Positions 18,157 through 33,012 of a stretch of 64,000 bases of DNA are shown one piece after another. The notes below the pieces were generated by a model that was given only the letters and a program-made list of their open reading frames with translations, had not been told where the DNA came from and did not search any database. The DNA is from Candidatus Bathyarchaeota archaeon (GTDB taxonomy: Archaea > Thermoproteota > Bathyarchaeia > Bathyarchaeales > Bathycorpusculaceae), in the NCBI GenBank assembly GCA_963826715.1, contig CAWGYA010000008.1, positions 256,001 to 320,000 on the forward strand, written 5' to 3'. Both the position numbers and the translations under genes were made by a program. Position 1 is the first letter of the stretch. The number at the start of each line of letters is the position of its first letter.

Positions 18157-19665
18157 TCAGTCTAAATTTTTAAGTTTTGCGCTTTCACGCGTGTTTGAAA
18201 GAGAATAAGCCGAGACTAGTTGGTCTAGTTTGCCTGCGGCGACATCTTGTTTTTTCTTGAGTGCTGTGATGACCTGTTTTGTATCGGCGAGAGTTTTATT
18301 GCTGCCTTTAATGGCTCTTTCAACTTCTGCGGGTGATGGACCACCTTGTACTTTATATGTTTCTATTAGTTTGCGGAGATTTGTGCATGAAACTATGTCT
18401 CGGTTTTTAATTGTTAATTTGATGTTTGCTGTTTCCAGAGCAATTTTTTCCAGCAACGGTGGCGTTGCATCGGTTAATGTTTTCTTTTCGTCAAGCAGTG
18501 CCTTTACGAGTGTACCAATGATTTTGTGGGAAGTTCGGAAAGCCACATTGTGCTTGCTAACCAGCATGTTGGCAAGCTCAGTAGCGCCGACAAAGCCCGC
18601 TGCTGCCTTTGATTCAACATCAGCAGATAGTTTTAGCTTTGGGATAATCGCGGTGAAAATCGCCAGCGATGTTGCCAGGTTGTCAACTGAAGCCCAGAGC
18701 TTAGGAGTTATTTCTTGGAAGTCAAGGTTGTAAGTAGTTGGCAGGCTCTTGAGTATGGCTGCAGTCGCAACAAAATCTGCCAAGCCATAACTGGCACGTG
18801 CACGGATTACTTCTAGCACCTCCGGATTTTTTTTCTGAGGCATGATGCTGCTTGTGGAGGTGAATTCATCGGGCAATTCGACTGTGCTGAATTCGGCTGA
18901 ACTCCAAATTATGAGGTCTTCAGCGAAGCGGCTGAGGTTCACGGCGAGAAGTGAAAGAACAGCTTGGGTCTCCATTATAAAATCTCGGCTACCTACTGCA
19001 TCCAGGGAATTTTCTAGTACTCTGTCGAAACCCAAAAGCTGGGCAGTTGTTTTTCTGTTTATGGGAAAACTTGTTGTCGCCAACGCGCATGCCCCAAGTG
19101 GGCATAAGTTAACACGTTGATATGCGCTTTGTAGTCGTTCAAGATCCCGTCCTAAAGCATCAACATGCGAGAGAAGATAGTGCCCAAAAGTTACTGGCTG
19201 GGCAGCTTGCAGATGAGTATATTCGAGTATTACTGTTTCTGTGTGCTTTGCTGCTGTCTCCAGAAGAACCTGTTGCATGTAAACTATTTGTTCCATGAGG
19301 GTTAGCAGTTTGGTTCGCAGCGTCATGCGTATGGCGGTTGCGACTTGGTCGTTTCGGCTCTTGGCTATATGCAAGTTGCCGCCGACTTCAGGACCATTTT
19401 CTGCTAAAACTGCCTCTTCCAACGCCATATGTACATCTTCGGCGTTGGAGTCAAGGTTTTGGCTATTTTGTTTTTGGAGGGCTAAGAGAATTTTTGCTCC
19501 GTTCTGCCATGTTATTATCTTCTGGTCCATAAGCATAACGATGTGGGCTTTGTTAATGGCTATGACGGCGTCGACTAAGAGCGAATCGTCTTTGCGTGAA
19601 GAGCAGAATTTGGCTACGTCAGCGCGTACATCGCTTAGGCGTCCGCCATGCAGCATTTTCGACAA
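18157..19665 (-). CDS. argH: Argininosuccinate lyase
   Basis: SRNDQVAT, YTHLQAAQP and SSIMPQKKNP motifs. Confidence 0.96.
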   Translation of the reverse strand: MSKMLHGGRLSDVRADVAKFCSSRKDDSLLVDAVIAINKAHIVMLMDQKIITWQNGAKILLALQKQNSQNLDSNAEDVHMALEEAVLAENGPEVGGNLHIAKSRNDQVATAIRMTLRTKLLTLMEQIVYMQQVLLETAAKHTETVILEYTHLQAAQPVTFGHYLLSHVDALGRDLERLQSAYQRVNLCPLGACALATTSFPINRKTTAQLLGFDRVLENSLDAVGSRDFIMETQAVLSLLAVNLSRFAEDLIIWSSAEFSTVELPDEFTSTSSIMPQKKNPEVLEVIRARASYGLADFVATAAILKSLPTTYNLDFQEITPKLWASVDNLATSLAIFTAIIPKLKLSADVESKAAAGFVGATELANMLVSKHNVAFRTSHKIIGTLVKALLDEKKTLTDATPPLLEKIALETANIKLTIKNRDIVSCTNLRKLIETYKVQGGPSPAEVERAIKGSNKTLADTKQVITALKKKQDVAAGKLDQLVSAYSLSNTRESAKLKNLD

Positions 19666-19690
19666 TTCTCAGCCTCCATTCGTTCTAAAT

Positions 19691-20923
19691 TCAGGTTTTC
19701 TCTGACTCGGATTTTTTGTTTGCCGCTTTCAGAGAATTATACATCCGTGTTTGCAGTCCCCAGAGTTCAATGAAGCCTTTGCTGTAGGATTGGTTGAAGC
19801 TGGTTTTGATGTTATAGTTGGCGAGGTTCTTGTCGTAGAGTGAGTTGGGGGAACTGCGTCCGATAACTATCATGCCGCCCTTGTAGAGTTTAAGTTTGAC
19901 TTCGCCTGTCACGTTTTCCTGTGAGTGGTTGATATAGGCGTCTAAGTCATCCTTAAGCGGATCAACCCACAGTCCAGCATAGGCGAGAAATACCCACTCT
20001 GCGTCAATTTGTTGCTTAAAAAGCACCTGATGCCGGGTCATCACCATCTTTTCAAGGTCTTTGTGAGCTTCAAGAATAACTAGCGCTGCCGGGCATTCAT
20101 AAACTTCGCGGGATTTTAAGCCTACAACCCGGTCTTCGATATGGTCAATTCTGCCGACTCCATTTCGACCGGCAATTTTGTTAACTTCCTCAATTAGTGC
20201 AAGGGGTGTCATCTCTTTACCGTTAACCGCGACTGGGACTCCTGCTTGAAAGGTGATTGTAACGATTTCGGGTTTATCTGGTGCTTTCTCTGGTGCAACA
20301 GTCCATTCGTAGGCGTCGTCTGGGGGTGTTTGACTTGCATCTTCCAGTAAACCGCATTCGATGGCTCGGCCCCAAACACTTGAGTCTATACTGTATTTTT
20401 TGGCTGATTCAGAGACGTGAATACCTTTGGTTTTAGCATATTCGATTTCTTCGTCTCGCGTTAACCCCCATTCTCGGATGGGTGCAAGAATTTGTTTGCC
20501 AGGGGCCAATGCACCCAAGGTTATGTCAAAGCGTACTTGGTCGTTGCCTCTGCCTGTGCAGCCATGCGCCAGACCTGTGGCGCCTTCTTTTTCTGCAATT
20601 TCCACCATCTTTTTGGCAATTAGGGGGCGTGAGAGAGTTGTGCTTATGGGGTATTTTCCTTCGTAGAGGGCGTTTGCTTTGATGGCTGGGAAAATGTAGT
20701 TTTTGGCGAATTCTTCTTTGGCGTCTATAGAGTAGTGTTTGATGGCGCCGAGTTTTTTGGCTTTGTCTTCTGCTGCTTTAAGGTCTTCGCCTTGACCTAC
20801 GTCTACTGTTACTGTTATTACTTGAGCGTTACATTTTTCTTGCAAGTATTTGATTAACACGGATGTGTCTAATCCGCCAGAATACGCTAGCACAAATTTA
20901 TCTGTTATTGGTTGGTCCCCCAT
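19691..20923 (-). CDS. argG: Argininosuccinate synthase
   Basis: LAYSGGLDTS, HGCTGRGNDQVRF and KSREVYE motifs. Confidence 0.97.
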   Translation of the reverse strand: MGDQPITDKFVLAYSGGLDTSVLIKYLQEKCNAQVITVTVDVGQGEDLKAAEDKAKKLGAIKHYSIDAKEEFAKNYIFPAIKANALYEGKYPISTTLSRPLIAKKMVEIAEKEGATGLAHGCTGRGNDQVRFDITLGALAPGKQILAPIREWGLTRDEEIEYAKTKGIHVSESAKKYSIDSSVWGRAIECGLLEDASQTPPDDAYEWTVAPEKAPDKPEIVTITFQAGVPVAVNGKEMTPLALIEEVNKIAGRNGVGRIDHIEDRVVGLKSREVYECPAALVILEAHKDLEKMVMTRHQVLFKQQIDAEWVFLAYAGLWVDPLKDDLDAYINHSQENVTGEVKLKLYKGGMIVIGRSSPNSLYDKNLANYNIKTSFNQSYSKGFIELWGLQTRMYNSLKAANKKSESEKT

Positions 20924-20963
20924 TTTTTGTTTTGAATTATTCTCAGTACCTTAAGGGCTGTAT

Positions 20964-21022
20964 TTTTAAACCTTGTGACTTTTTTGTTACTTAACAAGCT
21001 TTAAATGTCCCATTTGATACAC
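20964..21022 (-). promoter_or_regulatory. argG promoter/operator cassette (TATA plus two palindromic boxes), also present at 51381-51439
   Basis: Ungapped match to 51381-51439: 25/27 identical, then a 13-nt variable spacer, then 16/19 identical. Confidence 0.75.
20993..21021 (+). repeat. attL-like direct repeat
   Basis: AACAAGCTTTAAATGTCCCATTTGATACA, 28/29 identical to 31057-31085. Both copies are followed shortly by AAGAAAAC. Confidence 0.85.
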
Positions 21023-21130
21023 TTAAGAAAACTGTTTTGGGCTTTATCTTTTGGGTTTTTTGGTTGTGTATCATACTTTCACTTTCTCTTTTACTCTCTA
21101 AGCTTCTTACTTTCAAATAAACTTTTGAAT

Positions 21131-22201
21131 TTACCATAATTGGTCTTCCTCTGCTAGTAGTCCTTGGTCTTCGGGTAAGTCAAAATTGTCTTGTGTATCT
21201 TTTGGGTCATCACTATACACTGATTGGTCTAAGTTTTCGTTGGTATCGGTGGCGGTTTTAGGAGTTAGCCAACAAATGAACCTTTCAAGTAATGTCTTAG
21301 GTTTAGGCTCTTCTTTGGGTTGTTTTTGTATAGGTTGTTTTAGCTGTATGGGTGCACCGTTTCTTTTGAATTCGGCAATCTCTATTTCAGGATTAGTTTT
21401 GCCATCTAAGTATATCCAATGCCTTTTTGGTAGTTGCTGTACTCTATCTTTAAGGTGCTCTGGTAATTGACTCTTAATTTTTCTTAAGCTATTTTCTCCA
21501 AGCGTTAAACCAACAAAAGGTCGTAGCCGTTCTATGACTTTAGTGCTTATATCATTAAGGCGTTGACCTATCCCAATATAATGAATGTTCGCATCTGACC
21601 TTGATTGTGTGAATATAGTCATTAAATCCAAGCTATCATCTGAATTCATCGAGTAAGTGCCAAAACTGTTCTGTATTTCCTCTAAAATAATTATATAATG
21701 ATGGTTATAGTTCGGGTTTCTATCTATCTCCGATTCCTGCATCTCATATAATCGTTGGAGAACCAAACTTTCAAACGCTTTTATTCGTCTACCGTTGCGG
21801 TATTTAATCTCGAAAAGCAAAGATTCCTTAGACCGCAAAAGTTCCTCAAACCATTCATTTTGAACATATTCCCATTTCTTATCCAAGTTTACATGTATCG
21901 TATCTCTAAGATATGGAACAGCTTCAAGTTTTAGGTCTTCTTTAGGAATTATTGGATTGCATTCACATGTACCAATTTTTATATATTCACCCGACCAGAG
22001 TTTCCGCCGCCAAATAGTAGATGGACTAAGAACTATAACGGTCAAGTTTTCATCTGTTAATGCTTGTTTGCCTATACTTGCCGCACAATAGCTTTTTCCA
22101 TGTCCAGCTTCAGCCGCCAATACAATGCCGAGATGTTGCTTTATATCATCAAGTACTGCCGATAATGTGAAACTGCTATGTACCCGTTCATCGTTTGCCA
22201 T
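21131..22201 (-). CDS. HerA/FtsK-superfamily P-loop ATPase
   Basis: Walker A AEAGHGKS, Walker B IIILEE, and a QSRS...IGIGQRL arginine-finger/glutamine motif. Confidence 0.65.
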   Translation of the reverse strand: MANDERVHSSFTLSAVLDDIKQHLGIVLAAEAGHGKSYCAASIGKQALTDENLTVIVLSPSTIWRRKLWSGEYIKIGTCECNPIIPKEDLKLEAVPYLRDTIHVNLDKKWEYVQNEWFEELLRSKESLLFEIKYRNGRRIKAFESLVLQRLYEMQESEIDRNPNYNHHYIIILEEIQNSFGTYSMNSDDSLDLMTIFTQSRSDANIHYIGIGQRLNDISTKVIERLRPFVGLTLGENSLRKIKSQLPEHLKDRVQQLPKRHWIYLDGKTNPEIEIAEFKRNGAPIQLKQPIQKQPKEEPKPKTLLERFICWLTPKTATDTNENLDQSVYSDDPKDTQDNFDLPEDQGLLAEEDQLW

Positions 22202-22557
22202 TTTTCTTTTTCTCCATGTATTTTAATAGATATATTTGCAGATTGTGGTTATAATACATATTTTTCGATAAATTTCGGTAAACTTTGCGAAAAAAGCCCG
22301 CAAAATCAATATTTTTACAGATTAAATGCACATAAGGATTTTATGAGCAAAAAACATGTTCTAAATTTATTTTGTGACTCTAACTAGATTTTGTTATTGA
22401 GCGTTAATTTATGTTAATCTAACGTTTGATTTTATTCTTCATTTATTCATCACAATATAGCATGCTATACTTTCCAGAAATAGCAAAATTATCTTAATTT
22501 ATATCTAAAGCAAGCAACCACGAAAAAATTTGGGGCTAAAAAATAAAGTCAAAATTT

Positions 22558-23259
22558 TCAAATGGGTACGGGTGTTTTTCGATGTCTTCTAAGAAGCAAT
22601 ATACAGGCAATAACAACCGCTATAATAATCAAAGCAATAACTAGAACTGGGAAAGTTTGTGGTGTATTCGGACTAGGATTGACGGTTGGCGTTGGCGAAC
22701 TTGAACTTGCTGGTATAGTTATTGCTTGTGTGTTGCTCCAATCACTTGTTACTCCATCAAATCCATAAACTCTTCCACCTTGATGGTCGGTTGGAAATTC
22801 TATTCCAATAAGTGCAATAACTTGCATATCTATAGGTCCACTCTTAGAGATTCCTGTGTGATGATTTTCGCCTTCGAACGGATAGTCATCTATTGGAAAT
22901 GATATAATGGTGTAGTCTGAAGCAGATGCTTCATAATAGGTTCCGTAAGATGAAATGCCTACAAAGAATATTGGAGCGTAATTCCAGCCACCAAGCGTAC
23001 TGTTAGGGTCTTTAAATCGGAATCCATAGTAGAGATGGGGATTACTAACATTAATGTCACCAAATCCCGTTAGTGGCTGATTCTTAATAGTTACTTCCAA
23101 TGAAGACGTTGTTAATCTTGCGGTGAATTCTGGTACTGCTGGTCTAGGTATTGTCTGGTCAGTCTGAGCAGATACAGATTTAGCCGTCAATACACTCATG
23201 CACGAAATAGCCATTATTCCAATGAGGATTAAAGCGAAACTTTTGGTTATGCTATTCAT
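22558..23259 (-). CDS. Secreted, C-terminally membrane-anchored surface protein
   Basis: Signal peptide, IPRPAVPEFT motif, Ser/Pro/Thr linker, TM helix and basic tail. Confidence 0.75.
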   Translation of the reverse strand: MNSITKSFALILIGIMAISCMSVLTAKSVSAQTDQTIPRPAVPEFTARLTTSSLEVTIKNQPLTGFGDINVSNPHLYYGFRFKDPNSTLGGWNYAPIFFVGISSYGTYYEASASDYTIISFPIDDYPFEGENHHTGISKSGPIDMQVIALIGIEFPTDHQGGRVYGFDGVTSDWSNTQAITIPASSSSPTPTVNPSPNTPQTFPVLVIALIIIAVVIACILLLRRHRKTPVPI

Positions 23260-23306
23260 AGTTAATGAACGAAAACTAAGTCAATAAAAGGTTATTCGTT
23301 AAACTT

Positions 23307-23340
23307 TCTTGACTAAGCCCAGTCAAGAGTTCTTGACTAA
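23307..23340. repeat. Three TCTTGACT units (direct, inverted, direct)
   Basis: TCTTGACTAA at 23307, AGTCAAGA at 23321 and TCTTGACTAA at 23331. Confidence 0.6.
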
Positions 23341-23453
23341 AAGAAACCTGCCTTAGACCTTACAGCACCGCAACAGGAACAAACAATAATCCACGTATCA
23401 ATATCATAAACAGCATTCGACTCTATGCAACCGCATTTAGGGCAATTAACCAC
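23337..23453 (-). CDS. 38-aa TFIIB-type zinc-ribbon microprotein
   Basis: Not in the ORF track. GTG start behind GAGGT; translates MVNCPKCGCIESNAVYDIDTWIIVCSCCGAVRSKAGFF. Confidence 0.6.
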   Translation of the reverse strand: MVNCPKCGCIESNAVYDIDTWIIVCSCCGAVRSKAGFF

Positions 23454-23465
23454 CGCTCAAAACCT

Positions 23466-23966
23466 CTAAACGGTTGTTATATATTCGCTAACATTTCCGA
23501 AATTGTCGGTTGAAACCTTACCAAACTTATAACCAGTATTTTGCATTAGGCGTTTAGCTTCCTCTATATCTTGAATTAAGTATGGAATCGATTTTTCTAC
23601 AATCAAAGTATCCGTGCTCTCCTCAAAAGGAGCAAGAAAAGTGTTGCCCAAAGGATGTAAATCTGAAAGATAATAACGCATATCCGCATCATTATACCGA
23701 AGAACTATATGGGGGGCAACATCAGAACGAATTTTTATAGTGCAGTCTTGGGCAAAAAATTTCATTTTTTTGCCGCTAAGTGAATCCTCATCTTTAAACT
23801 CCTTTAAGAAAATAATTTTGAATTTTGCTTCTCTACTTATGCCTTCAACTTGAATCGGCTCGTATTCTTTATATGAATTCCAATCCAACTTTTCACGCCA
23901 TACAGTTCTGCCGTGTTCAGTGTGCCATTTCCCAGATTTTGGGCGATGCTTAACTTCCAAAGACAA
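23466..23966 (-). CDS. Hypothetical protein (element)
   Basis: 166-aa ORF tightly packed in the element operon. Confidence 0.65.
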   Translation of the reverse strand: MSLEVKHRPKSGKWHTEHGRTVWREKLDWNSYKEYEPIQVEGISREAKFKIIFLKEFKDEDSLSGKKMKFFAQDCTIKIRSDVAPHIVLRYNDADMRYYLSDLHPLGNTFLAPFEESTDTLIVEKSIPYLIQDIEEAKRLMQNTGYKFGKVSTDNFGNVSEYITTV

Positions 23967-23967
23967 A

Positions 23968-24546
23968 CTAATTCACTCTCCATTTGAATCGATTTTGGCG
24001 TAACCGCTCATTCAGCTTTTTACGTCTTTCTTGTTCTTCAACTGCCATATTTTCATTGATTTGTTTGGGACTACGCATAAAATCTATATTTGAGCCGATG
24101 AAGGTCATATCGATGGGTTTATCGTGAATTATTTTTCTGGTTAGTTTACTCATTATATTTTTGCAATCTTTATTTCCCATTTTGGCTAATCCTTCAACTT
24201 TTTCTATAACTTCAGCTTCATTTTTGCCACGAATCCAGTCAAGCGGTATGTCTGAATTTTCATAGTCTATGTTTCTAAGAACATGTTCGTCTTGATATGA
24301 GGGTTCATTTGTTAATATGGCTGTATTTTCAGGATTTTCAGGGGGTTTCTTGGGGTCTGAAGGTGTAAATTCGGCTCTATCACGAACTAACATGGCTTTT
24401 ATTAAATTTTCTTGTTCTCCGATTTTTTTGTTTAATTGGGCTATTTTTTCATCTTTAGCTATCACTTGAGGGGAAGTATCAAGCATAACCTTTACTTTGC
24501 GTGTATCTTTGTCAAGGTTAACTGTTCTCTCTGTTTCTTCTGTCAT
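23968..24546 (-). CDS. Hypothetical protein (element)
   Basis: 192-aa ORF with short coiled-coil stretches; ATGA overlap with the upstream gene. Confidence 0.7.
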   Translation of the reverse strand: MTEETERTVNLDKDTRKVKVMLDTSPQVIAKDEKIAQLNKKIGEQENLIKAMLVRDRAEFTPSDPKKPPENPENTAILTNEPSYQDEHVLRNIDYENSDIPLDWIRGKNEAEVIEKVEGLAKMGNKDCKNIMSKLTRKIIHDKPIDMTFIGSNIDFMRSPKQINENMAVEEQERRKKLNERLRQNRFKWRVN

Positions 24547-24869
24547 TGTCCGTTCTTCCTAATCTTCTTCTCATCTATATCATGCACTTTTGAGAATCGG
24601 TCATCATAATATCTCTTCATCTCAGGGTCGGCGTGAATGGGGTTCTCTCTTGGGTCAACAGCTTTTTTCATAAGAAAATCAGTTTTGGATTCCAACTCTA
24701 TTTTTATATCAGCATGTGGAACATGCGGTTTTAGCTGGTCTTGGTTTATCGTAGCGATAATTTTTTGGCGGTTTCGTCTTATAGCTTCAGTCATCATGTC
24801 CCACCTCAACAGGTTGATTTTTTGAGAAATTGAACTTGTTTGATTGCCCATAAAACTGGTATATGACAT
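24543..24869 (-). CDS. Hypothetical protein (element); start uncertain
   Basis: ORF within the operon. The start may be the ATGATG near 24797. Confidence 0.55.
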   Translation of the reverse strand: MSYTSFMGNQTSSISQKINLLRWDMMTEAIRRNRQKIIATINQDQLKPHVPHADIKIELESKTDFLMKKAVDPRENPIHADPEMKRYYDDRFSKVHDIDEKKIRKNGQ

Positions 24870-25056
24870 TAGAGCGTGTAACTAATGGAAAAGTTTCTAG
24901 GTCGGCTTTATCGTAAAGTGTACCAACTTCAAATAAGGGTTCAATTATTTTATTTAGTATACCTGATTTTGAGCAGTTACAAATTTTTGCGAGAGTATCT
25001 ATTTTACGCCATGTTTCTAGGGAAATACACATTGTTGTATAGGATTTTTTATTCAT
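24787..25056 (-). CDS. Ribbon-helix-helix (CopG-like) DNA-binding protein
   Basis: TTMCISLETWRKIDTLAKICNCSKSGILNKII fits a beta-alpha-alpha RHH pattern. Confidence 0.6.
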   Translation of the reverse strand: MNKKSYTTMCISLETWRKIDTLAKICNCSKSGILNKIIEPLFEVGTLYDKADLETFPLVTRSNVIYQFYGQSNKFNFSKNQPVEVGHDD

Positions 25057-25434
25057 ATCTTGTCACTCAATATATTATATATCTATTGAGTTTTTGTTTT
25101 TCACCCATTTAAATATTTTTATTATTACTAACACTTTATTGTAAAATACTCTGTTTATAGCAATTATTTGATAATAAATACAACAATATTTAAATTATTG
25201 ATTGTTTATATATTTAGATAGCTTTAGTTCGGCTTTGGCTAAAGCAAACCCCACATAGTCAACCATAAACAAAGCCTATCCACCCTAAAATATGTCTAAA
25301 AAAGACTGATTTATAAAGCCATAATATTTAAATATATAGTATATAAAGTTTACTATATTAAACCAATTAATTAGCGGCGGGTGCAACCGCATAATTTTTA
25401 GGGTCAAATAAAATTCGGGTGGATATTAGATAAG

Positions 25435-26613
25435 ATGGATAAGTTAAATTATGGTATTATGGATAGCACTCAAACAACTATCCCGAAAATAAGCAAACAA
25501 TTAAGTTACTATCATAGGAACTCTGTTAGAATAAATAAGAATAAAAGAAAAAAATATAAACAAAATATAGCAAAAGAAAATAGAGTATATAAATACAATA
25601 AGTCCAGAGTTTCTAAAAAAAGCTTTTACTACTCAAATATCAGAAAAGAAATAGAACAATATAACGATAATAAACCCATTTTGAGCCTCAATTCACTAGT
25701 ATCTCTTTCATATAATAAACTACTCCCCGAATACAAGTACACTCATGACAACTGCACGGTGACCAGTAGATTTTCCGCTTTACCTTCAATAGTTGCCGAA
25801 GCACTACTACAGGATGGTTTATTTTATTCTGACTTTGAGAAAGCATTTTCCAACATAAGCACTAGACAGCTACAAAGAAATCTTCAATTATTAGTCAAGT
25901 TAAAATGGCTTGTAAGATGGGGTAACTTTGATTATACACAATATTACGCCAATCCCTTCTTGTTAGCATTATACCGTAAACGTGAAACATATGCTTCCTT
26001 ATGTTGGTTCACAAAATTTAGAATCGACTTTTTTGACTTGATAAATATTCCTTTACTTAATGCTTTAGACCAAAAAGTGACTTTAGCTGAAACAAATTTT
26101 AGTTCATATTTTGGAAAAGCCCAATGGATAAAAGCATTTTTTGAAGGACAAGTAAGAATAAAATTACATACGGCTAACGGAATCTTTGAAACTATAATGC
26201 CCGTTAACCTACATGGAGCTAACAAACGTGAAGGTAAAACAAATAATCCATATGGCTTCCCACATCATACAATCCCATTAAATTGGCGATTGTTTGATAT
26301 CTTATCAAGTTCTGAGTACCAAAACGGGAACACCTACATCCATTTTGACAACAGCTTTAAAATCATAAAATATGAAGCCTCAAAGAACAGTTGGGGATAT
26401 CATAATTATATAACTTTTAAGAAACCTTTTGAGAAGCTATTAGAGGATAAAAAGAATGGGTGGAATACTAAGACCTGTCAATATGTAGAAGTATCAGATT
26501 TTGAAATTTTACAAAGATTATTCAATGAGAGATTCGTCAATGGCAAAAGAAGAAACGACTTGTTTGATGCTTTAGGTATTCAATACAAGTCAAGGAAAAT
26601 TAATGAAAATTAA
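25435..26613 (+). CDS. Putative replication/DNA-binding protein with a winged-helix segment
   Basis: Basic N-terminus; FSNISTRQLQRNLQLLVKLKWLVR looks like a wHTH; divergent from the RHH gene across an AT-rich spacer. Function inferred only. Confidence 0.45.
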   Translation: MDKLNYGIMDSTQTTIPKISKQLSYYHRNSVRINKNKRKKYKQNIAKENRVYKYNKSRVSKKSFYYSNIRKEIEQYNDNKPILSLNSLVSLSYNKLLPEYKYTHDNCTVTSRFSALPSIVAEALLQDGLFYSDFEKAFSNISTRQLQRNLQLLVKLKWLVRWGNFDYTQYYANPFLLALYRKRETYASLCWFTKFRIDFFDLINIPLLNALDQKVTLAETNFSSYFGKAQWIKAFFEGQVRIKLHTANGIFETIMPVNLHGANKREGKTNNPYGFPHHTIPLNWRLFDILSSSEYQNGNTYIHFDNSFKIIKYEASKNSWGYHNYITFKKPFEKLLEDKKNGWNTKTCQYVEVSDFEILQRLFNERFVNGKRRNDLFDALGIQYKSRKINEN

Positions 26614-26930
26614 AAAAGTGGATTTCGTCTAGAGGGTTTACCGAATAGAAGAGTTCCAACATTATCCTTAGTTTTTTTCTTTATGGGCTTATCATGAGCA
26701 GTAGAATGACAATTTGGACATAGAATTTTTAGATTTGAAATTTTATTATTTTTTGGGTCTCCATCTTTGTGATGAACATGAGGTTTTATTCCGTCCAATG
26801 ACCGATGGCACTTTTCGCATTTACCCTTTGAACGAACCAATAGCTTAGTTCTCAAGGATTGCCCAACAGCTTTACGTTTTGGTTCATCATTAAACCCAAA
26901 CAAATCTGATTTAGTCAATGCAGAATTCAA
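26610..26930 (-). CDS. HNH endonuclease
   Basis: CEKC...HVHHKDGDPKNNKISNLKILCPNCH. Confidence 0.88.
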   Translation of the reverse strand: MNSALTKSDLFGFNDEPKRKAVGQSLRTKLLVRSKGKCEKCHRSLDGIKPHVHHKDGDPKNNKISNLKILCPNCHSTAHDKPIKKKTKDNVGTLLFGKPSRRNPLF

Positions 26931-26936
26931 CTCCTA

Positions 26937-27287
26937 CTACTTTCCGCTCATGACTCTGTTTATTAAATTTACATATCTATTTGCCATGTTTTGAGCGTTT
27001 GAATCAGCGAAATTCATACCGCCAAAAAGCAAATCGGAATCACCCGTCTTAAATATTATTGTCTCTTCATTTCCAGTTTTATGCTTTATAACTAATTGAG
27101 TAAGTCCTGTAAACGATTGACTTTTAGGATAAACTTCTAAGAGGTTATCCAGCAATATCTCTCGTTCAATTTTGTCCTTGTTTAAGAAAAGTAACCGTTT
27201 GTTTGTTACACCTAAAGTTTTATGCCAACCTATTTTTCCCTCATTTAGAAGCAGATTTTCATCGTTTTCTAGATTCATTCTAACCAC
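26937..27287 (-). CDS. Bacterial PH-domain-like protein
   Basis: LGVTNKRLLFL motif and beta-rich pattern. Confidence 0.55.
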   Translation of the reverse strand: MVRMNLENDENLLLNEGKIGWHKTLGVTNKRLLFLNKDKIEREILLDNLLEVYPKSQSFTGLTQLVIKHKTGNEETIIFKTGDSDLLFGGMNFADSNAQNMANRYVNLINRVMSGK

Positions 27288-27380
27288 CGTTTTCGATTAT
27301 GTCTGTTTTGGGTATTTAGCTTTTGTCAAATGATGAAAGTTCAACTTGGCGATGCAAAAAAAAGAGCAAGAGAGCAAAAA

Positions 27381-28163
27381 CTAAAGGTAGTACTCTAAGA
27401 TAGTTGCTTTCAAGTAATCATACACACTACCATCGATATGAAGGGATGACAAATCAATCTCAGCCTTGTTTGGGTAAATGTGGATGTCTATGTTTTCTTT
27501 TGATTTTAAAGTAACGCTGACTGACATTTCCTTCTCTTTTACCCAATCCGCAATGGTAAAATCAGCCTTTGTGGGTTCAATTGTGAATAATCCATTAGAC
27601 GTTTTTTTCCATAGCCCATTTTGCTTCAGTTGTTCATCTAACAGGTCTATAATTGAAGTCACATCAAACAAAGTTCTCTCAAAGGAATTAAAAGGAAAAC
27701 TAGCTTCCAAAGTAACGGCAACACTATCGCAAACTTGTGCTATTTCAACTGCTTCAGTTTCACTTTCAACGTCTCTATGTTCAGTAGCCAAATTAAATTC
27801 AAGTGAATACTCTTTGCCATTATACGAGATATCGGATGAAGTCTGCTCTCTTTCCTCAGACCATAGTAAAGGTGAAAAAACAATTTGCCCTTTGTTTCGT
27901 CCAGAGATAGTAGTGGTAATACTGGATATCATCTCTCTAACTTGTTCTGGTTTTGTTGGTATTAGCATTACTCTAAAGTGAAAATTAATCTTGATAGGAT
28001 GCCATTTTGTTCTGAAAATCTTTGTTTTTCGAACCATTTTTTTCCATATCGTAGCAAAGGGAGTTTTATCATAAAAATAACCCAATAATGCATCGGTTAT
28101 CCTGCCAACGACATAAGCCACGATAGGAAATAAAGCACCATATAGTGCTGTTAACCAATCCAA
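27381..28163 (-). CDS. Hypothetical protein with N-terminal TM helix
   Basis: 260-aa ORF with a hydrophobic N-terminus, 4 nt downstream of the preceding gene. Confidence 0.7.
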   Translation of the reverse strand: MDWLTALYGALFPIVAYVVGRITDALLGYFYDKTPFATIWKKMVRKTKIFRTKWHPIKINFHFRVMLIPTKPEQVREMISSITTTISGRNKGQIVFSPLLWSEEREQTSSDISYNGKEYSLEFNLATEHRDVESETEAVEIAQVCDSVAVTLEASFPFNSFERTLFDVTSIIDLLDEQLKQNGLWKKTSNGLFTIEPTKADFTIADWVKEKEMSVSVTLKSKENIDIHIYPNKAEIDLSSLHIDGSVYDYLKATILEYYL

Positions 28164-28167
28164 TTAA

Positions 28168-29091
28168 TCATTCCTCTTCTTCTTCACTAACGTCTTCAAA
28201 TATGTCTACCGATGCCGAAAAACCAGTTAACGGAACGGCAGGTGGCTTTTCCAATTGCTTTAATGTGGGGAAGATATGTCTACGTAGGAACCATTCATAT
28301 TCGCTGTAAGTCGCACTTGTGTAAAACCTAAGAAGTGCATCCTCAGAAAGAGTAATGACTTTTCTATGGTTTTTCCCGTCAGGAGCGGTAACACTATAAG
28401 CAAACATATGTTGGTGGATTGAACTTCTCTTCTTATCATTTAAGTATGATTCTTCATTTTCAAAACCCTTGCCTACTATTCTGACTGATTTTATTTTTGG
28501 TGTGGCAAAGCCATCTAATGTAGTGTCCAGAAGTTCACCATTAAGTGACTCTCTGACAGCTTCTACATCGCTGGGGGCAATACCTGCTGGAACGGCATAC
28601 AATCCCACCGTTATCAGAAAGTTGTTAATTCTATCGAAAGTGCTTTTGCTATTAGCCCTTGACCCTAAGATTACAAGATAGACCCTTTTTAACCGCTCAT
28701 CTTGACAAACAAGAAAATGTATCTCAGTTGTTGCTATAATGAATATCCTGTAACCTCTATATGTCCATTCCAAGGGTTTGTCAAAAGTAATTTTGCCAAA
28801 CAAAGAAGAACCCGTTAGGGTAATTTTATCAATACTTGTCCTAAGCACAAGCTTACCTGTAGCTTTGTCCTTGAAAACCTCTGGGATGACTAGTTTTTCA
28901 TTTTTTTGACTATTTTGTAGCTCTTCCACATCTATGTAAGAAGTATCGGATTTGTCTTTCAGCGTTTCCATTAACTTTGTCCAGACTATCTGACCTTTTT
29001 TATATTGTATGAGAAAGAAAGAAACTCCAGTGATAACCTTACTTTGTTCTCTGTACACATCAACAAAGTCTGATGTTGGGGTTTCGGTCAT
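28168..29091 (-). CDS. Hypothetical protein (element cargo)
   Basis: 307-aa ORF with an acidic tail; TTTATATA box upstream near 29117-29124. Confidence 0.7.
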   Translation of the reverse strand: MTETPTSDFVDVYREQSKVITGVSFFLIQYKKGQIVWTKLMETLKDKSDTSYIDVEELQNSQKNEKLVIPEVFKDKATGKLVLRTSIDKITLTGSSLFGKITFDKPLEWTYRGYRIFIIATTEIHFLVCQDERLKRVYLVILGSRANSKSTFDRINNFLITVGLYAVPAGIAPSDVEAVRESLNGELLDTTLDGFATPKIKSVRIVGKGFENEESYLNDKKRSSIHQHMFAYSVTAPDGKNHRKVITLSEDALLRFYTSATYSEYEWFLRRHIFPTLKQLEKPPAVPLTGFSASVDIFEDVSEEEEE

Positions 29092-29459
29092 AGGTTAAGC
29101 ATTACAGAACAAAGTGTATATAAATTATTATAACAGCAACAAAGCATTTACAGCCTTGCGATGTCAAGTTTATTTTTAAAAAATGGGTTTCAGCGGATGG
29201 ATTCCCCTTGTTTTATAGCGAACAAAATCGAACTACGTAGGGGCGAGTTTTCGGCTATTTTGGGCTTGTTTTAGATGGAAAAAATGCGGCGGGCATCACT
29301 TATCATCCAATAAGTAACTCAAAAGAGATGTTTATCAGGACAAAAACTTAGCTGTATTAGCCGATAAAACTTTTAACTTCCCTACCGAAAACAAGGCTAT
29401 AAAGGCAAAGATTAGTACTTTTAGAACTAAAAAAGGATTAAAAAGGGATAGGATTAAAA

Positions 29460-30947
29460 TTACATTAAATGCCTTCGCCAATGGTCTTTAAGTTTCATAT
29501 TTTTGCGTTTATCTGGATGTAATAAGTATTCTTTCCATTGGCTAAGTGTATCTGGGTTGAATAGTATCTTATGTTCTTCAATTGTCTCCCAGATTGCTCT
29601 ACAAGTTTGAGGGTCATCTTCTATTTCTTTATCTGATGCTTGTTTGTCAGTATCGGAATCATAACCATAATCAAAATAGACCTCATTCATGTCTTCTTCA
29701 TATTGCCATTTTTCTGCCTGATAACTCATGAAGTCATCAATTTTCTTATTGGTTTCTTCGAGTTGCTTTTGTTGTTCAGCTATGATTTTGATATTTTCAA
29801 GTTTTCCTTTTTCGGTCTCTGCTTTCTGTTCGTTTAGTTCTGCTTTTAAGTCTGCTACTGTTTCAGGGACTAGGTAAGGAATGCATGACCTGAAAACCTC
29901 TAATTGGTCAGTGTTTGGTCTATCTTCATCATCGTCTAAACCTTCATAAACTGCCTCAATTCCATCAGGCGTATGAGACGTTAATGGTTTAGTTAGGTTG
30001 GAAGTAATTTTGATTTTGTCTCTAAGAACTGTGCTGATAACATCTCTAAAGTCTTGTGGGCTATAGCGTTTTTCGCCTTTGAATGCTTTTTCTGATGCAT
30101 CAACAAAAATGGAAAAAATGTTAGTTAGTGTACCGCCTTTCTTACTGCCTACTTTTGTTGATTTATAACTCATGAATAATGGTGAATTGTTGTTATATGC
30201 TATGCCTTTTTCGTTTAGTTCTGCTTTGTACGCTTCGAATTTCTGGTTTGCATAGTAGTGCAAGAATCCGACATGTTTAGCTTTTCTATATTTGCCTTTG
30301 CCGCTACCTTTTAACCGTTTAGCTTCTACTCTTAACCAGAAAGAAACGTCTTTATCGTCAAGCGGTTTCAAATCTCCAATCTTTAATTGTCTAAGTGTGC
30401 CTTTGCGTACAGGACAAGATTCTAAGAACCAAACCAAAAACTTGTCTCGATTGGTAGTCATAGCCTCTTCAAGCTTAAGGCAATCTTCAACTTTTGGCGT
30501 TCTCTTTTTAGGGTCTGGTTTATCGAGAAAATCCCCTACATCGGAATCTAGGCTTCTCTTTCTATTAGATTTATAAAAGCTTTTGACAGCCGCAAGCACT
30601 CCAATCTTTGAGTCAATTGTAAATTCCCTCTCTTCTTTTTCGCCATTTTCATCTATGCCAAAATATGTGTCTTGCCTAAGATATTTCTCTAAAAGTTCTT
30701 CTGCGGCATCTTCATTAATTGAATCTGCATTTACGCCTTTTTGGAGCATAACCGCAAATTCCAATTGAGTTGGCTTTAGCTTAATTAGCTCATCTGGAGT
30801 CATGCATACATTATCGCAATAGGTTTTGATTCTGCTAATGTAAATTGTTTCTGTATCCTTGCTGTCTTTGCATTTCTTATCATAGAAATTTTGTCCAGAA
30901 ACGAAAGATAATAGCCATGCCTTGTTAGAGTCAGTCATACGGCTCAA
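29460..30947 (-). CDS. Tyrosine recombinase/integrase
   Basis: CPVRKGTLRQLKIGDL (R), KGSGKGK (K), YSPQDFRD (HxxR position), TSHT (H) and AVY (Y). Start at TTG 30947 behind GAGGTGA, or at ATG 30938. Confidence 0.85.
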   Translation of the reverse strand: MSRMTDSNKAWLLSFVSGQNFYDKKCKDSKDTETIYISRIKTYCDNVCMTPDELIKLKPTQLEFAVMLQKGVNADSINEDAAEELLEKYLRQDTYFGIDENGEKEEREFTIDSKIGVLAAVKSFYKSNRKRSLDSDVGDFLDKPDPKKRTPKVEDCLKLEEAMTTNRDKFLVWFLESCPVRKGTLRQLKIGDLKPLDDKDVSFWLRVEAKRLKGSGKGKYRKAKHVGFLHYYANQKFEAYKAELNEKGIAYNNNSPLFMSYKSTKVGSKKGGTLTNIFSIFVDASEKAFKGEKRYSPQDFRDVISTVLRDKIKITSNLTKPLTSHTPDGIEAVYEGLDDDEDRPNTDQLEVFRSCIPYLVPETVADLKAELNEQKAETEKGKLENIKIIAEQQKQLEETNKKIDDFMSYQAEKWQYEEDMNEVYFDYGYDSDTDKQASDKEIEDDPQTCRAIWETIEEHKILFNPDTLSQWKEYLLHPDKRKNMKLKDHWRRHLM

Positions 30948-31056
30948 GAAAATGTCACCTCTGAAAAAGTTAAAGGTTGCTGAATATCGGTTGTTTTTAA
31001 GTGTCTGAAATGGGACACAAGACATGCAGTTCTTAAGTGACTCAATTCGGTAGCTA

Positions 31057-31085
31057 AACAAGCTTTAAATGTACCATTTGATACA
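31057..31085 (+). repeat. attR-like direct repeat, containing the TATA box of the downstream gene
   Basis: AACAAGCTTTAAATGTACCATTTGATACA, 28/29 identical to 20993-21021. Confidence 0.85.
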
Positions 31086-31098
31086 TCAAGAAAACATT

Positions 31099-31677
31099 AT
31101 GACAGTCGCTCAAAACGTCCGCAGTCATCTACGAAACAAACCCTATTTACTCGAAGCCTTAGAGAAAGGCATAGTTAACTTGAGTGAGCTTTCACGGCAA
31201 ATTCAAATAGAACTCAAATCCAGCGATACCAGCGCCATAAAAGCTGCCCTGCGCCGTTACAGCGAAGAACTTCAAAAACACAAACAGAAACGCGAAGAAA
31301 AAGTGTTGGCTCTCCTAAAACGTAGTGGCGTGGCTGTCTATGACCGCAAATCCGTCATGATAACCGCCAAAGAGCTCAGTTCAAAGGCAGGCATGAAGGT
31401 AGATTTGCTTGACAAATTCGTATACCTCACTGATCGAAACGATTTGCCCGAACGTACGCCCTCGTTGGTGAAACATGAGAACTGCACTATGATTGTAATT
31501 CATTCACCTGAGGAACTTGAAGCTACCCCAGGTGTCGTTGCCTTCCTAGCCACTTTATTGGCCGAGCAAAATATCAACATCGTCGAGTTCATTTCATGTT
31601 GGACAGAAACTATCATGGTGGTAGAAAAAAAAGACAGCTTAAAGGCCTACGAGGTTCTCTCAAACTTAGTGGGTTAA
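31099..31677 (+). CDS. ACT-domain putative amino-acid-responsive regulator
   Basis: N-terminal HTH-like VNLSELSRQI...AIKAALRRY; C-terminal ACT TPGVVAFLATLLAEQNINIVEFIS. Start moved to ATG 31099. Confidence 0.75.
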   Translation: MTVAQNVRSHLRNKPYLLEALEKGIVNLSELSRQIQIELKSSDTSAIKAALRRYSEELQKHKQKREEKVLALLKRSGVAVYDRKSVMITAKELSSKAGMKVDLLDKFVYLTDRNDLPERTPSLVKHENCTMIVIHSPEELEATPGVVAFLATLLAEQNINIVEFISCWTETIMVVEKKDSLKAYEVLSNLVG

Positions 31678-31761
31678 CGGATGCTTGTTAAAGGCAAAAT
31701 TAAATAATGTTCAATCCGAATTAAGCCAATTAACCATTTCACATTAGCGGAGACATACAAG

Positions 31762-33012
31762 ATGGTACACCAAGAATGCATAAACTGCAAGACAATTTAT
31801 GGTATTGACGAGATTGTGTACTTCTGCAGAAAATGCGGAGAAATCCTGGAGATAAAGTTCGATGGCGACGAATTATCCGCTGCAGTCCAAGACAGCAATT
31901 GGAAAAGTAAGCCGCTTTCGGTTTGGCGTTATCGCCCTTTTATGCCAATTCATGAAGCCTCTAAGCCTATAACGCTCAGTGAAGGTGGAACTGGGCTGCA
32001 CCGTTCTCAGCGCCTTGGCGACGAGTTGGGGGTAGAAACACTTTATGTGAAGAATGAGGGCGAAAACCCCACTGGCAGTTTTAAAGATCGTGGCATGACC
32101 GTTGGGGTTACCAAAGCTGTCGAGCTTGGCGCTCGTCATGTCATCTGCGCTTCAACCGGTAACACTTCGGCTAGCCTCGCAGCATACGCTGCACGCGCTG
32201 GAATCCGCTGCACAGTCCTGATTCCGTCAGGCAAAATCGCGTATGGCAAACTTAGTCAAGCCATGATACATGGCGCTAAAGTTTTGCAAGTTAGAGGAAA
32301 CTTTGATGAAGCGTTAGATTTTGTTCTGAAACTCGCTGATAAACACAAAGACATTTACTTACTTAACTCGATTAACCCTTTCCGTATTGAAGGTCAAAAG
32401 TCGCTGGGATACGAAATCTGCGAACAATTAAACTATGTGGTTCCGGATCGCATTATTATCCCCGTTGGAAACGCTGGCAACATCAGCGCTGTCTGGAAGG
32501 GCTTGAATGAATTCTATAAATTAGGTTTAATCAAGATGCTACCTAAAATGACGGGTATCCAAGCTGAAGGTTCAGCGCCTATAGTGCAGGCGATTAAAAC
32601 AGGTAGTGACAAAATTGTTCCTGTTGAGCACCCCGAAACTCTTGCGACCGCCATCCGGATTGGTGCGCCTGTAAGCTGGAAGAAAGCGATAAATGCTATC
32701 CGTGAATCCCGTGGTACAGCTGAAACCGTCACGGATCAAGAAATTCTTGATGCACAAAAAACTTTAGCGCGGGTGGAAGGCATTTTTGTGGAACCCGCTT
32801 CGGCTTCATCTATTGCTGGACTTAAGAAGCTCATTAAGAGAGGTGTGATACTTGAGAATGAACGTGTGGTCTGCATCACGACGGGTCATGGTCTCAAAGA
32901 TCCAGATACTGCAATTAAACAGAGTGAGAAGCCTCTTGAGGTAGATGCTGATATCTCAGCGATTGAGGATGCTTTGGGTTTAAAGAAGGAAACGGCAATT
33001 TTAGCACGGTGA
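31762..33012 (+). CDS. thrC: Threonine synthase
   Basis: NPTGSFKDRG, CASTGNTS, PVGNAGN and TGHGLKD motifs. Confidence 0.95.
   Translation: MVHQECINCKTIYGIDEIVYFCRKCGEILEIKFDGDELSAAVQDSNWKSKPLSVWRYRPFMPIHEASKPITLSEGGTGLHRSQRLGDELGVETLYVKNEGENPTGSFKDRGMTVGVTKAVELGARHVICASTGNTSASLAAYAARAGIRCTVLIPSGKIAYGKLSQAMIHGAKVLQVRGNFDEALDFVLKLADKHKDIYLLNSINPFRIEGQKSLGYEICEQLNYVVPDRIIIPVGNAGNISAVWKGLNEFYKLGLIKMLPKMTGIQAEGSAPIVQAIKTGSDKIVPVEHPETLATAIRIGAPVSWKKAINAIRESRGTAETVTDQEILDAQKTLARVEGIFVEPASASSIAGLKKLIKRGVILENERVVCITTGHGLKDPDTAIKQSEKPLEVDADISAIEDALGLKKETAILAR

Follow-up and report, generated by a model that had tools for sequence, protein, structure and literature searches.

The target choice of site-specific integrases is usually explained by the properties of tRNA genes, which are conserved, symmetric and rebuilt on insertion. 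A 64,000-nucleotide stretch of the genome of a Candidatus Bathyarchaeota archaeon (contig CAWGYA010000008.1, positions 256,001 to 320,000), called the window hereafter, raises the question of how a 10-kb island came to lie in the control region between two divergent host genes, argG and a gene for an ACT-domain protein, and whether such a region can take the part of a tRNA gene. The interval 21022-31056, together with one copy of a repeated 29-nucleotide (nt) core, is very likely a cryptic integrative element of ~10.06 kb in the chromosome of this Bathyarchaeia member, a soil or peat archaeon. The integration is real and site-specific, its target is a conserved divergent control region, and it is probably recent.

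The features of the two junctions and of the host genes beside them are the following.

20993..21021, plus strand: attL core, the left direct repeat, which extends to 20990 with one more mismatch; by its sequence it holds a copy of a TATA-like box (21000-21006) and the palindrome TGTCCCATTTGATACA (21006-21021)
31057..31085, plus strand: attR core, the right direct repeat, which extends to 31054; by its sequence it holds the TATA-like box (31064-31070) and the palindrome TGTACCATTTGATACA (31070-31085)
20975..20990, plus strand: host box 1, GTGAC-TTTTTT-GTTAC, outside the core and on the argG side after integration
19691..20923, minus strand: host argG (argininosuccinate synthase), left flank; the integration leaves the TATA-like box of this gene (20962-20970, minus strand) intact
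31099..31677, plus strand: host gene with an N-terminal DUF7523 and an ACT domain (the ACT gene), right flank, 192 aa from ATG 31099

A repeat search over positions 20000-32000 detected a single long direct-repeat family, at 20990-21021 and 31054-31085 (32 nt, 94% identical, two mismatches, start-to-start spacing 10,064). Within it the 29-nt cores are identical at 28 of 29 positions, the mismatch being C at 21009 and A at 31073. When the 29-mer was searched with up to three mismatches in the whole window, exactly two sites were found, the repeats themselves, with 0.00 expected from 100 dinucleotide-preserving shuffles. An earlier reading of the sequence alone (the sequence-only reading) had described 29-bp repeats with one mismatch, 10,064 bp apart, and the repeat search and the shuffle control bear it out. 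The composition of the island is foreign, with a guanine-plus-cytosine (GC) content of 35.1% compared to 45.3% in the 10 kb to its left and 43.2% in the 10 kb to its right. ARAGORN found no tRNA or tmRNA gene in the window and no Rfam match at E<=0.1 was obtained between 19500 and 32500; the att core thus overlaps no tRNA or other RNA gene in these searches, as had been proposed when a target other than a tRNA gene was suggested.

The host genes on either side belong to amino-acid metabolism. Pfam identified carA, argH and argG on the minus strand of the left flank, and thrC, hom and the aspartokinase gene follow the ACT gene on its 3' side on the plus strand. The start of the ACT gene at 31099 is suggested by the alignment of congeners, and its product matched only the ACT domain of aspartokinase among the PDB proteins (E 0.006). 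The ACT protein was searched in 40 relatives and was present in 23 of the 24 same-genus genomes. The gene lies head-to-head with argG at 20 of the 23 same-genus loci (1.5-kb flank) and at all five loci of other families in the order, and the core is present as a single copy in all 20 congener argG/ACT intergenic regions. Once the island is removed in silico, the window aligns colinearly, over all 436 nt, to each of these 20 loci with 76-85% identity, and the start codons of argG and the ACT gene come to lie 111 nt apart. The sequence-only reading had held that removal of the element would restore a compact divergent argG/ACT region, had named the empty site in related genomes as a check, and had made the adjacency of argG and the ACT gene in relatives, as well as the absence of core genes from the interior, the points on which it would stand or fall; on all of these the comparison came out in its favour.

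This result bears directly on the possibility that no mobile element is present at all, the repeats being two operator copies and the genes between them native. The repeated sequence is indeed a conserved, regulatory-looking motif, as such a reading would have it. However, the adjacency of argG and the ACT gene in relatives, in which the island genes are not syntenic, the fall of GC content by ~10 points within the island, the ORFan nature of its genes (10 of its 12 open reading frames, ORFs, have no Pfam family at E<=0.01), the position of the integrase at its edge and the existence of an empty-site contig leave this reading a negligible probability.

The empty-site contig came from four public soil runs (X1-X4), which were compared with positions 19500-32500. 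In X1, a 221-nt contig joins 20992 to 31057 and thereby represents the empty site. It matches the window exactly over its right 108 nt and differs from it at 11 positions over its left 107 nt; the contig therefore stems from a near relative and is no proof of excision. Two pieces of the island, at 100% identity, were found in X2. Of the two joints for which reads had been proposed as a check, attB was thus recovered, from this near relative, and attP was seen in none of the four runs. The island is nearly without coverage in X1, X3 and X4, in which the flanks are covered, an observation that was not counted as evidence. A second joint in X2, from 21021 to 31152 with a 40-nt side, is probably the empty site of a more distant relative and was not used.

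Three same-genus genomes depart from the simple argG/ACT arrangement. In the first, a complete one-contig genome (G014; locus L034, ~985-2650), a 1.65-kb insert separates argG from the ACT gene. This insert contains a frameshifted gene for a secreted, beta-helix-like protein (ORFs of 266 and 157 aa) and no integrase; it is bounded by 23-nt repeats (TTTTATG..CCATTTGATACATC) overlapping the same palindrome as the core of the window, and a short stretch beside its ACT-side repeat resembles the element arm described below. It looks like a decayed element at the argG/ACT site. In the second (G015), two contigs, C3 (L035, ending at 179854) and C7 (L012, starting at 1), break within the core at ...CCATTTGA / TACAG... 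and abut perfectly, which suggests a repeat, or a mixed occupied and empty population, at this site. In the third (G006; L027, C34), the ACT gene is still preceded by the TATA-like box and the palindrome, but beyond these the sequence shows no relation to the argG side, and the query used did not detect argG in the 210-contig assembly.

The enzyme that probably carried out the integration is encoded beside the right repeat.

29460..30947, minus strand: integrase, a divergent tyrosine recombinase by its relatives and predicted fold, 495 aa from TTG 30947 or 492 aa from ATG 30938

The ORF was listed as 29460-31061 on the minus strand, and its likelier start is TTG 30947, because relatives start at an equivalent M/L/V-S-[RK]-[ML]-T-D sequence; a GAGGTGA is found 7 nt upstream of this codon. 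The start lies 109 nt inside the right repeat (30947 versus the core at 31057), and the gene is therefore uninterrupted by the att site. The protein of the window itself had no match in Pfam, PHROGs, NCBIfam, PADLOC or the PDB sequences. Database searches yielded 58 relatives, of which the named ones are all from Bathyarchaeia and a few are annotated as integrase or XerC/D. In an alignment of 36 relatives and the window protein (37 sequences), R298, H322 and Y331 are invariant, R178 (in CPVRKG) and K210 (in RLKG) are at least 90% conserved, and the order of a recombinase active site is kept. These columns were assigned to Arg-I, Lys-beta, His-x-x-Arg-II, His/Trp-III and Tyr by motif order and by a weak alignment to XerA. 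PF00589 was detected at E<=0.1 in 21 of the 37 family members (best 3.1e-9), and a profile of the family matched XerA alone, at E 0.62, among the PDB sequences. The AlphaFold (AF2) model of the window protein, with a mean pLDDT (predicted local distance difference test) of 81.3, had 41 Foldseek matches in the PDB at E<=0.001, headed by XerA (5hxy, 1.9e-5) and including Cre, XerH, IntI and the Tn1549 Int. Both the catalytic residue order and, in the model, the two-domain fold of Cre, XerA and lambda Int are those of tyrosine recombinases. On the strength of its relatives, its conserved residues and this predicted fold, the protein is a divergent tyrosine recombinase of the type that is kept intact on integration, and the claim that an integrase stands beside the right repeat holds.

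Two further observations concern this gene. An exact 18-nt direct repeat, TTCGTTTAGTTCTGCTTT, occurs inside it at 29829-29846 and 30210-30227, 381 nt apart, and may be due to chance. The window's own genome contains a second, degraded member of the integrase family (L058, G000:C3:1-9000, 192-1564) at the start of a 16.9-kb contig; it is 40-46% identical and is interrupted by a TAA and a shift of reading frame. The ATPase gene described below has no second copy in that genome.

The element-side DNA next to the cores contains a further set of repeats.

30994..31050, no strand assigned: element-side arm of attR/attP, with two inverted copies (30994-31017 and 31030-31050) of a ~21-nt motif, CCCATTTGATACACTTAAGAA
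21009..21029, plus strand: direct copy of the arm motif at the attL junction, from the repeat search and the sequence

In the repeat search the inverted repeats of the arm were 88% and 81% complementary. At attL, the motif spans the junction between core and element (21009-21029), and CACTTAAGAA (21020-21029) is the inverted partner of TTCTTAAGTG (31030-31039). The copies, which would flank the core in a circular element, are candidate integrase-binding sites. The arm of a second element found at the argG/ACT site (L036) is homologous to that of the window, and the same layout with sequences of their own was found in L042 (AATATGTGACT...AGTCACATATT) and in L040 and L041 (CTCTCCCA...TGGGAGAG). 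As to the single mismatch between the cores, the C variant of attL matches the internal inverted copy of the element and the A variant of attR matches the empty-site contig of X1, a pattern which suggests the left 16 nt of the core (AACAAGCTTTAAATGT), with the TATA-like box, as the segment of strand exchange.

The inverted repeats could also be read as those of a transposon-like element, the 29-nt repeats being its target-site duplication and the 10-bp sequences CACTTAAGAA and TTCTTAAGTG its terminal inverted repeats. They do adjoin both junctions, and a target-site duplication would likewise be single-copy in empty sites. However, a repeat of 29-32 nt is far above known duplications, given as 2-13 bp for DDE enzymes in the part of PMC4701971 concerned, and the thaumarchaeal direct repeats (att sites and target-site duplications taken together) have a median of 17 bp according to PMC6563490. 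In addition, the two copies differ by one base and weaker similarity extends beyond them, no DDE transposase or Cas1 (as a casposon would have) was found among the 12 ORFs with four libraries, the element encodes a tyrosine recombinase, the same sequence is used by the diverged element L036, and the relic in G014 occupies the same site. A transposon-like origin is accordingly very improbable.

The sequence occupied by the integrated element could be described more closely from the alignment of the 20 congeners. The repeat contains TTTAAAT (21000-21006 and 31064-31070), followed by the imperfect palindrome TGT[C/A]CCA-TT-TGATACA (21006-21021 and 31070-31085), and the distance from the first base of TTTAAAT to the ACT start codon (31099) is 35 nt. 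Near-invariant positions of the alignment are the argG-side sequence TTTTTAAA, box 1 (GTGAC-N6-GT(T/C)AC), TTTAAAT and the palindrome, and the leaders beside both start codons are variable. Box 1 is a perfect palindrome, GTGAC-N6-GTCAC, in five of the 20 congeners. The core starts 2 nt past box 1; integration therefore leaves box 1 and the argG side as they were, and the ACT gene is deprived of box 1 but retains the TATA-like box and the palindrome. The sequence-only reading had placed the TATA box of the ACT gene and a second operator box within the repeat, and had noted that the ACT gene is parted from the first box. The coordinates agree with the latter, as GTGAC-N6-GTTAC at 20975-20990 stays with argG; for the former, the sequences are as described, and a promoter and operator role is suggested by their conservation and position.

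The mechanism that we propose is that the element's own tyrosine recombinase recombined attP, on a circular form of the element, with a 29-nt attB. This attB would be the conserved core of the divergent argG/ACT control region, consisting of the TATA-like box of the ACT gene and the palindrome before its start codon. Conservative site-specific recombination would duplicate the core, whereby argG would retain all of its upstream region, and the TATA-like box and the palindrome would stay with the ACT gene; only box 1 would have ended up 10 kb from the ACT gene. A conserved promoter core would thus stand in for a tRNA gene as a short and highly conserved target which integration rebuilds.

The use of such sites is not confined to the window. 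A scan of species-representative genomes yielded 20 integrase loci, all but one labelled Bathyarchaeia, Bathyarchaeota or uncultured archaeon, and a scan of metagenomes (JGI) 37 more; within the genus, family members are distributed patchily (28 of 81 genomes) and many are decayed, with pseudogenes and internal stops. The remaining locus of the first scan (L051, DATHCJ010000057.1) is labelled as a metagenome-assembled genome of Limnocylindrales, a bacterial group, and is probably a binning artefact. The second element at the argG/ACT site (L036, in another metagenome-assembled genome; its integrase is 63% identical to that of the window) lies beside ACT-thrC-hom and has the core with one mismatch together with the homologous arm; L089 is probably the same sequence. 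Five loci (L040, L041, L043, L093 and L094) are head-to-head with a thermosome gene. The same core was found in L040, L093 and L094, and exact 20-nt boundary repeats, ATATTTAAATATAAATTTTT, are located 50 nt upstream of the thermosome start in L041 and L043. Four loci (L044, L045, L046 and L096) adjoin leuA; in L044 and L046, an 11-nt core, TTAAATATAAA, recurs at the far end, ~22 nt upstream of a host start codon, and at that end the two loci share a conserved element end and a conserved host flank. An unnamed 426-aa gene is adjoined by L039, L042, L091 and L092, with a 14-nt core, ATTAAAGTATTTGT. The element L042 at this site is 4.7 kb long, and L039 (9903-11378; also L060 and L092) is a minimal element of ~1.5 kb with the integrase alone between the 14-nt repeats. 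Further neighbours are a molybdopterin oxidoreductase gene (L037), a GyrI-like gene (L038) and a P-type ATPase gene (L054), for which the repeats are unconfirmed.

Altogether, closer relatives of the integrase lie beside the 5' ends of at least seven host genes, and four of the sites are bounded by direct repeats with TATA-like sequences. The att sites of homologous integrases, which had been put forward as a check, are thus located in the argG/ACT, thermosome, leuA and 426-aa-gene promoter regions, the last word being used with the qualification given above. In 25 of the 35 distinct loci with enough upstream sequence, an ORF of 100 aa or more starts within 300 bp of the integrase start and is read away from it. 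None of the 20 related loci has a tRNA gene adjoining the integrase, the nearest being 650 bp away (L052). The closer relatives of the integrase seem to make a habit of targeting conserved host genes at their 5' control regions.

Several observations weigh against this account and concern the enzyme, the site and the circular form. The window integrase itself has no PF00589 match at E<=0.1, and the His of the HxxR motif, present in 34 of the 37 aligned sequences, is replaced by Gln in it and in two other members. As to the site, the roles of the TATA-like box and the palindrome as promoter and operator are argued from conservation in 20 of 20 congeners and from position. The 16-mer palindrome has no convincing further copies in the window's genome that would define a regulon: a scan with up to two mismatches gave six matches, three of them the element's own, compared to two for a control pattern. 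TATA-like words are weakly enriched at -60 to -28 of 1,370 crude ATG starts (3.1 versus 1.8 per position), which is compatible with the promoter reading without proving it. The AT-rich cores might reflect a mere preference for intergenic DNA that melts easily. Where the crossover took place is uncertain, because at the mismatch position the closest named congeners have C instead of A. A more distant relative (L047, 35% identity) targets a TFB gene at its 3' end, the repeat being 26 nt long, and in the branch with 30-37% identity the divergent neighbour is a recurring gene of ~140 aa for a winged helix-turn-helix protein, which is probably element-borne; therefore, the promoter habit is supported for the closer branch only. 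As to the circular form, no back-joint was seen in the four soil runs, none of the 37 metagenome loci has the ATPase gene directly upstream of the integrase as attP would, and no relative of the integrase was found in IMG/VR.

Some of these points would also fit a relic, that is, the same integration in a now fixed and immobile island, domesticated or decaying and no longer excised. No attP or circular form was detected in the soil runs, IMG/VR or the metagenome loci, the Gln at the HxxR position might point the same way, and one mismatch separates the repeats; moreover, decay at the argG/ACT site is documented by the integrase-less insert of G014, and numerous members of the family within the genus are pseudogenes that contain internal stop codons. 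On the other hand, the reading frames of the integrase (495 aa) and of the ATPase (356 aa) are complete and uninterrupted, the repeats are still identical at 28 of 29 positions, and the empty site co-occurs in the same habitat. The Gln variant (residue 295 of the 492-aa form), shared with a 96%-identical relative, also persists in one that is only 60% identical. In addition, proteins at least 90% identical to the integrase, the ATPase and two cargo proteins (o166 and o307) are encoded, in many cases as fragments, on other ENA contigs, of 10,114, 9,316 and 8,737 nt; the first of these is near the unit length of 10,064 bp and could be a stand-alone copy. We therefore consider a relic unlikely, while retaining it as a serious alternative to an element that may still be mobile.

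How this site compares to those of known integrative elements can be judged in part from the literature. Archaeal att sites are mostly located in tRNA genes, and intergenic and intragenic sites occur as well (PMC8371274, PMC6563490); among 68 thaumarchaeal elements, 39 are in tRNA genes, 15 are intergenic and 14 occupy the 3' ends of protein-coding genes (Krupovic et al. 2019, PMC6563490). Non-tRNA integration in archaea is therefore already known and is not new in itself. The prophage psiM100 of Methanothermobacter wolfeii occupies an AT-rich intergenic site (PMC8371274). In the part of that source concerned, neither its site nor that of phage lambda is described as a promoter element, whereas in the window it is the core that is best conserved within a divergent control region. 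The arm repeats of the window, which may or may not act like the arm-type sites of lambda, flank the core at 0-17 nt and in inverted orientation.

The SSV-type ('suicidal') and pTN3-type integrases are, like the integrase of the window, archaeal tyrosine recombinases of integrative viruses or plasmids (PMC8371274). pTN3-type integration is also described as rewiring promoters, the rebuilt tRNA gene being expressed from the integrase promoter (PMC8371274, PMC7253208). According to PMC8371274, their targets are tRNA genes and their attP lies inside the integrase ORF, which is split on integration; in contrast, the attP of the window is 109 nt upstream of an intact integrase gene, with no tRNA gene and no split gene. 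The integrative and conjugative elements TnGBS1 and TnGBS2 of Streptococcus resemble the present element in their systematic insertion at promoters, which leaves the downstream gene intact (PMC4701971). As described there, however, they are bacterial, use a DDE transposase and are targeted by position, 15-16 bp upstream of the -35 boxes of many genes, whereas the window would owe its island to sequence-specific recombination with one conserved core. A tyrosine-integrase family with att cores that are conserved TATA-type promoter cores of housekeeping genes was not found in the literature searched, nor was any work on the integrase family of the window or on TATA-box or promoter att sites in Bathyarchaeia. 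The word 'Bathyarchaeota' has 0 occurrences in the available text of PMC8371274, and the Bathyarchaeia virus paper PMC10848311 describes, in the part available, other viruses.

The promoter might be more than a landmark. A speculative extension of the proposed mechanism, to which we give only a small probability, is that the integrase family is specialised on archaeal core promoters and that TBP/TFB, or a regulator bound to the palindrome, bends or occludes the site and thereby serves as an architectural cofactor or a gate in integration and excision. Such a role could be played because the TATA-like box lies in the putative strand-exchange segment. The same extension supposes, with equally small probability, that the far-end copy of the host promoter drives transcription into the element, antisense to the ATPase gene, and that in leuA-type sites the near promoter copy points into the integrase gene. 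If the gate were real, the switch of the element would be wired to the amino-acid or stress regulation of the host. A scan for sigma-70 promoters and terminators gave nothing and is irrelevant to an archaeon.

Apart from this extension, integration into the conserved core would mean that the logic of tRNA-gene targeting has been applied to another conserved target, the archaeal promoter core, by an element family with at least four confirmed host sites. These sites provide a natural set of attB/attP pairs for an integrase family barely detected by domain libraries, and the element family would mark conserved promoter cores in an uncultured, abundant archaeal class. They also raise the questions of how transcription-factor occupancy relates to recombination and how integration relates to the expression of arginine and threonine genes. 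Island finders keyed to tRNA genes and to Pfam integrase matches would miss such elements.

The kind of element that is integrated at this site is to be judged from its other genes.

21131..22201, minus strand: P-loop NTPase (the ATPase) of 356 aa with the Walker A sequence GHGKS, the second hallmark gene, always at the end far from the integrase
22558..23259, minus strand: 233-aa protein that starts with a signal-like segment and has a membrane anchor at its C terminus; no family match, one relative in L054
23466-23966, minus strand: o166, with a predicted all-beta fold without known match
23968-24546, minus strand: o192, charged and helical-looking
24543..25056, minus strand: two small ORFs, of 108 and 89 aa, with no recognised family
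25435..26613, plus strand: 392-aa ORF, the only long plus-strand gene; no recognised family, Atlas scores <=0.80
26610..26930, minus strand: HNH endonuclease of 106 aa (PHROG HNH families down to E 1e-11, Pfam HNH; in PADLOC, the ZorE-type HNH domain only)
26937..29091, minus strand: three cargo ORFs, of 116 aa, 260 aa (phrog_24283, E 8e-15) and 307 aa (phrog_24098, E 5e-26)

The 12 island ORFs were compared with Pfam, PHROGs, NCBIfam and PADLOC. The matches consist of the HNH nuclease, the two PHROGs, both families of unknown function, and weak P-loop matches only; no defence system, capsid, terminase, replicase, transposase, Cas1 or conjugation gene was recognised in these libraries. The 307-aa protein had no tblastn match in 50,697 phage records. 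With an integrase and direct repeats but no recognised hallmark, the element falls within the operational class of cryptic integrated elements as given in PMC6563490. It resembles the thaumarchaeal members described there, which are mostly <20 kb, have a tyrosine-recombinase integrase as their sole dependable gene and short flanking direct repeats, carry ORFan cargo and pose the same question of virus or plasmid. It differs from them in its Bathyarchaeia host, in an integrase family barely detected by Pfam, in the far-end P-loop ATPase as a second hallmark and in its targets, which are specifically control regions with TATA-like boxes on the 5' side of conserved genes, used repeatedly in different species; the word 'promoter' has 0 occurrences in the available text of PMC6563490.

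When 11 delimited or partly delimited elements (1.5-11 kb) were compared, the integrase was present in all 11 and a P-loop NTPase at the opposite end in 10, some of these being fragments; nothing else was common to them. The other genes of the window element were found in at most two of the 10 related elements, in agreement with the view that its interior contains no core genes, and the o166/o192 pair (23466..24546) is common to L044 and L047. In the circle, the ATPase gene would be directed towards attP and, beyond it, the integrase gene. The ATPase had a weak match to DUF87/HerA in Pfam (E 0.005) and another to a terminase-large PHROG (E 0.0013), and its profile matched no PDB sequence. Its neighbours in the Atlas, at 0.95-0.98, include DUF87, HerA and TrwB clusters, mostly from viral contigs. 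By these sequence comparisons the 356-aa protein probably belongs to the FtsK/HerA superfamily.

The element might thus be a provirus, with the FtsK/HerA-like ATPase packaging its genome and with o166, o192 and the membrane-anchored 233-aa protein as virion proteins. According to PMC6563490, this ATPase superfamily includes the packaging enzyme of membrane-containing archaeal and bacterial viruses, and the viral origin of most Atlas neighbours, the two PHROG matches among the cargo proteins and the HNH nuclease are in line with it. By composition only, o192 and o166 resemble a scaffold-plus-capsid arrangement. However, no capsid protein was recognised; the model of o166 (pLDDT 80.6) had no fold match, with a best Foldseek E of 0.13 and a best VIA Z of 4.1 over 48,161 chains. 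Moreover, IMG/VR contained no relative of the integrase, and only the integrase and the ATPase are conserved among the 11 elements, some of which measure just 1.5-4.7 kb. One distant relative of the ATPase (26% identity) was found there on a 28-kb viral contig, the neighbours of which gave a subtilase only and were uninformative. A provirus is hence a credible possibility, on the doubtful side, and an integrative plasmid with a DNA-translocating ATPase fits equally well.

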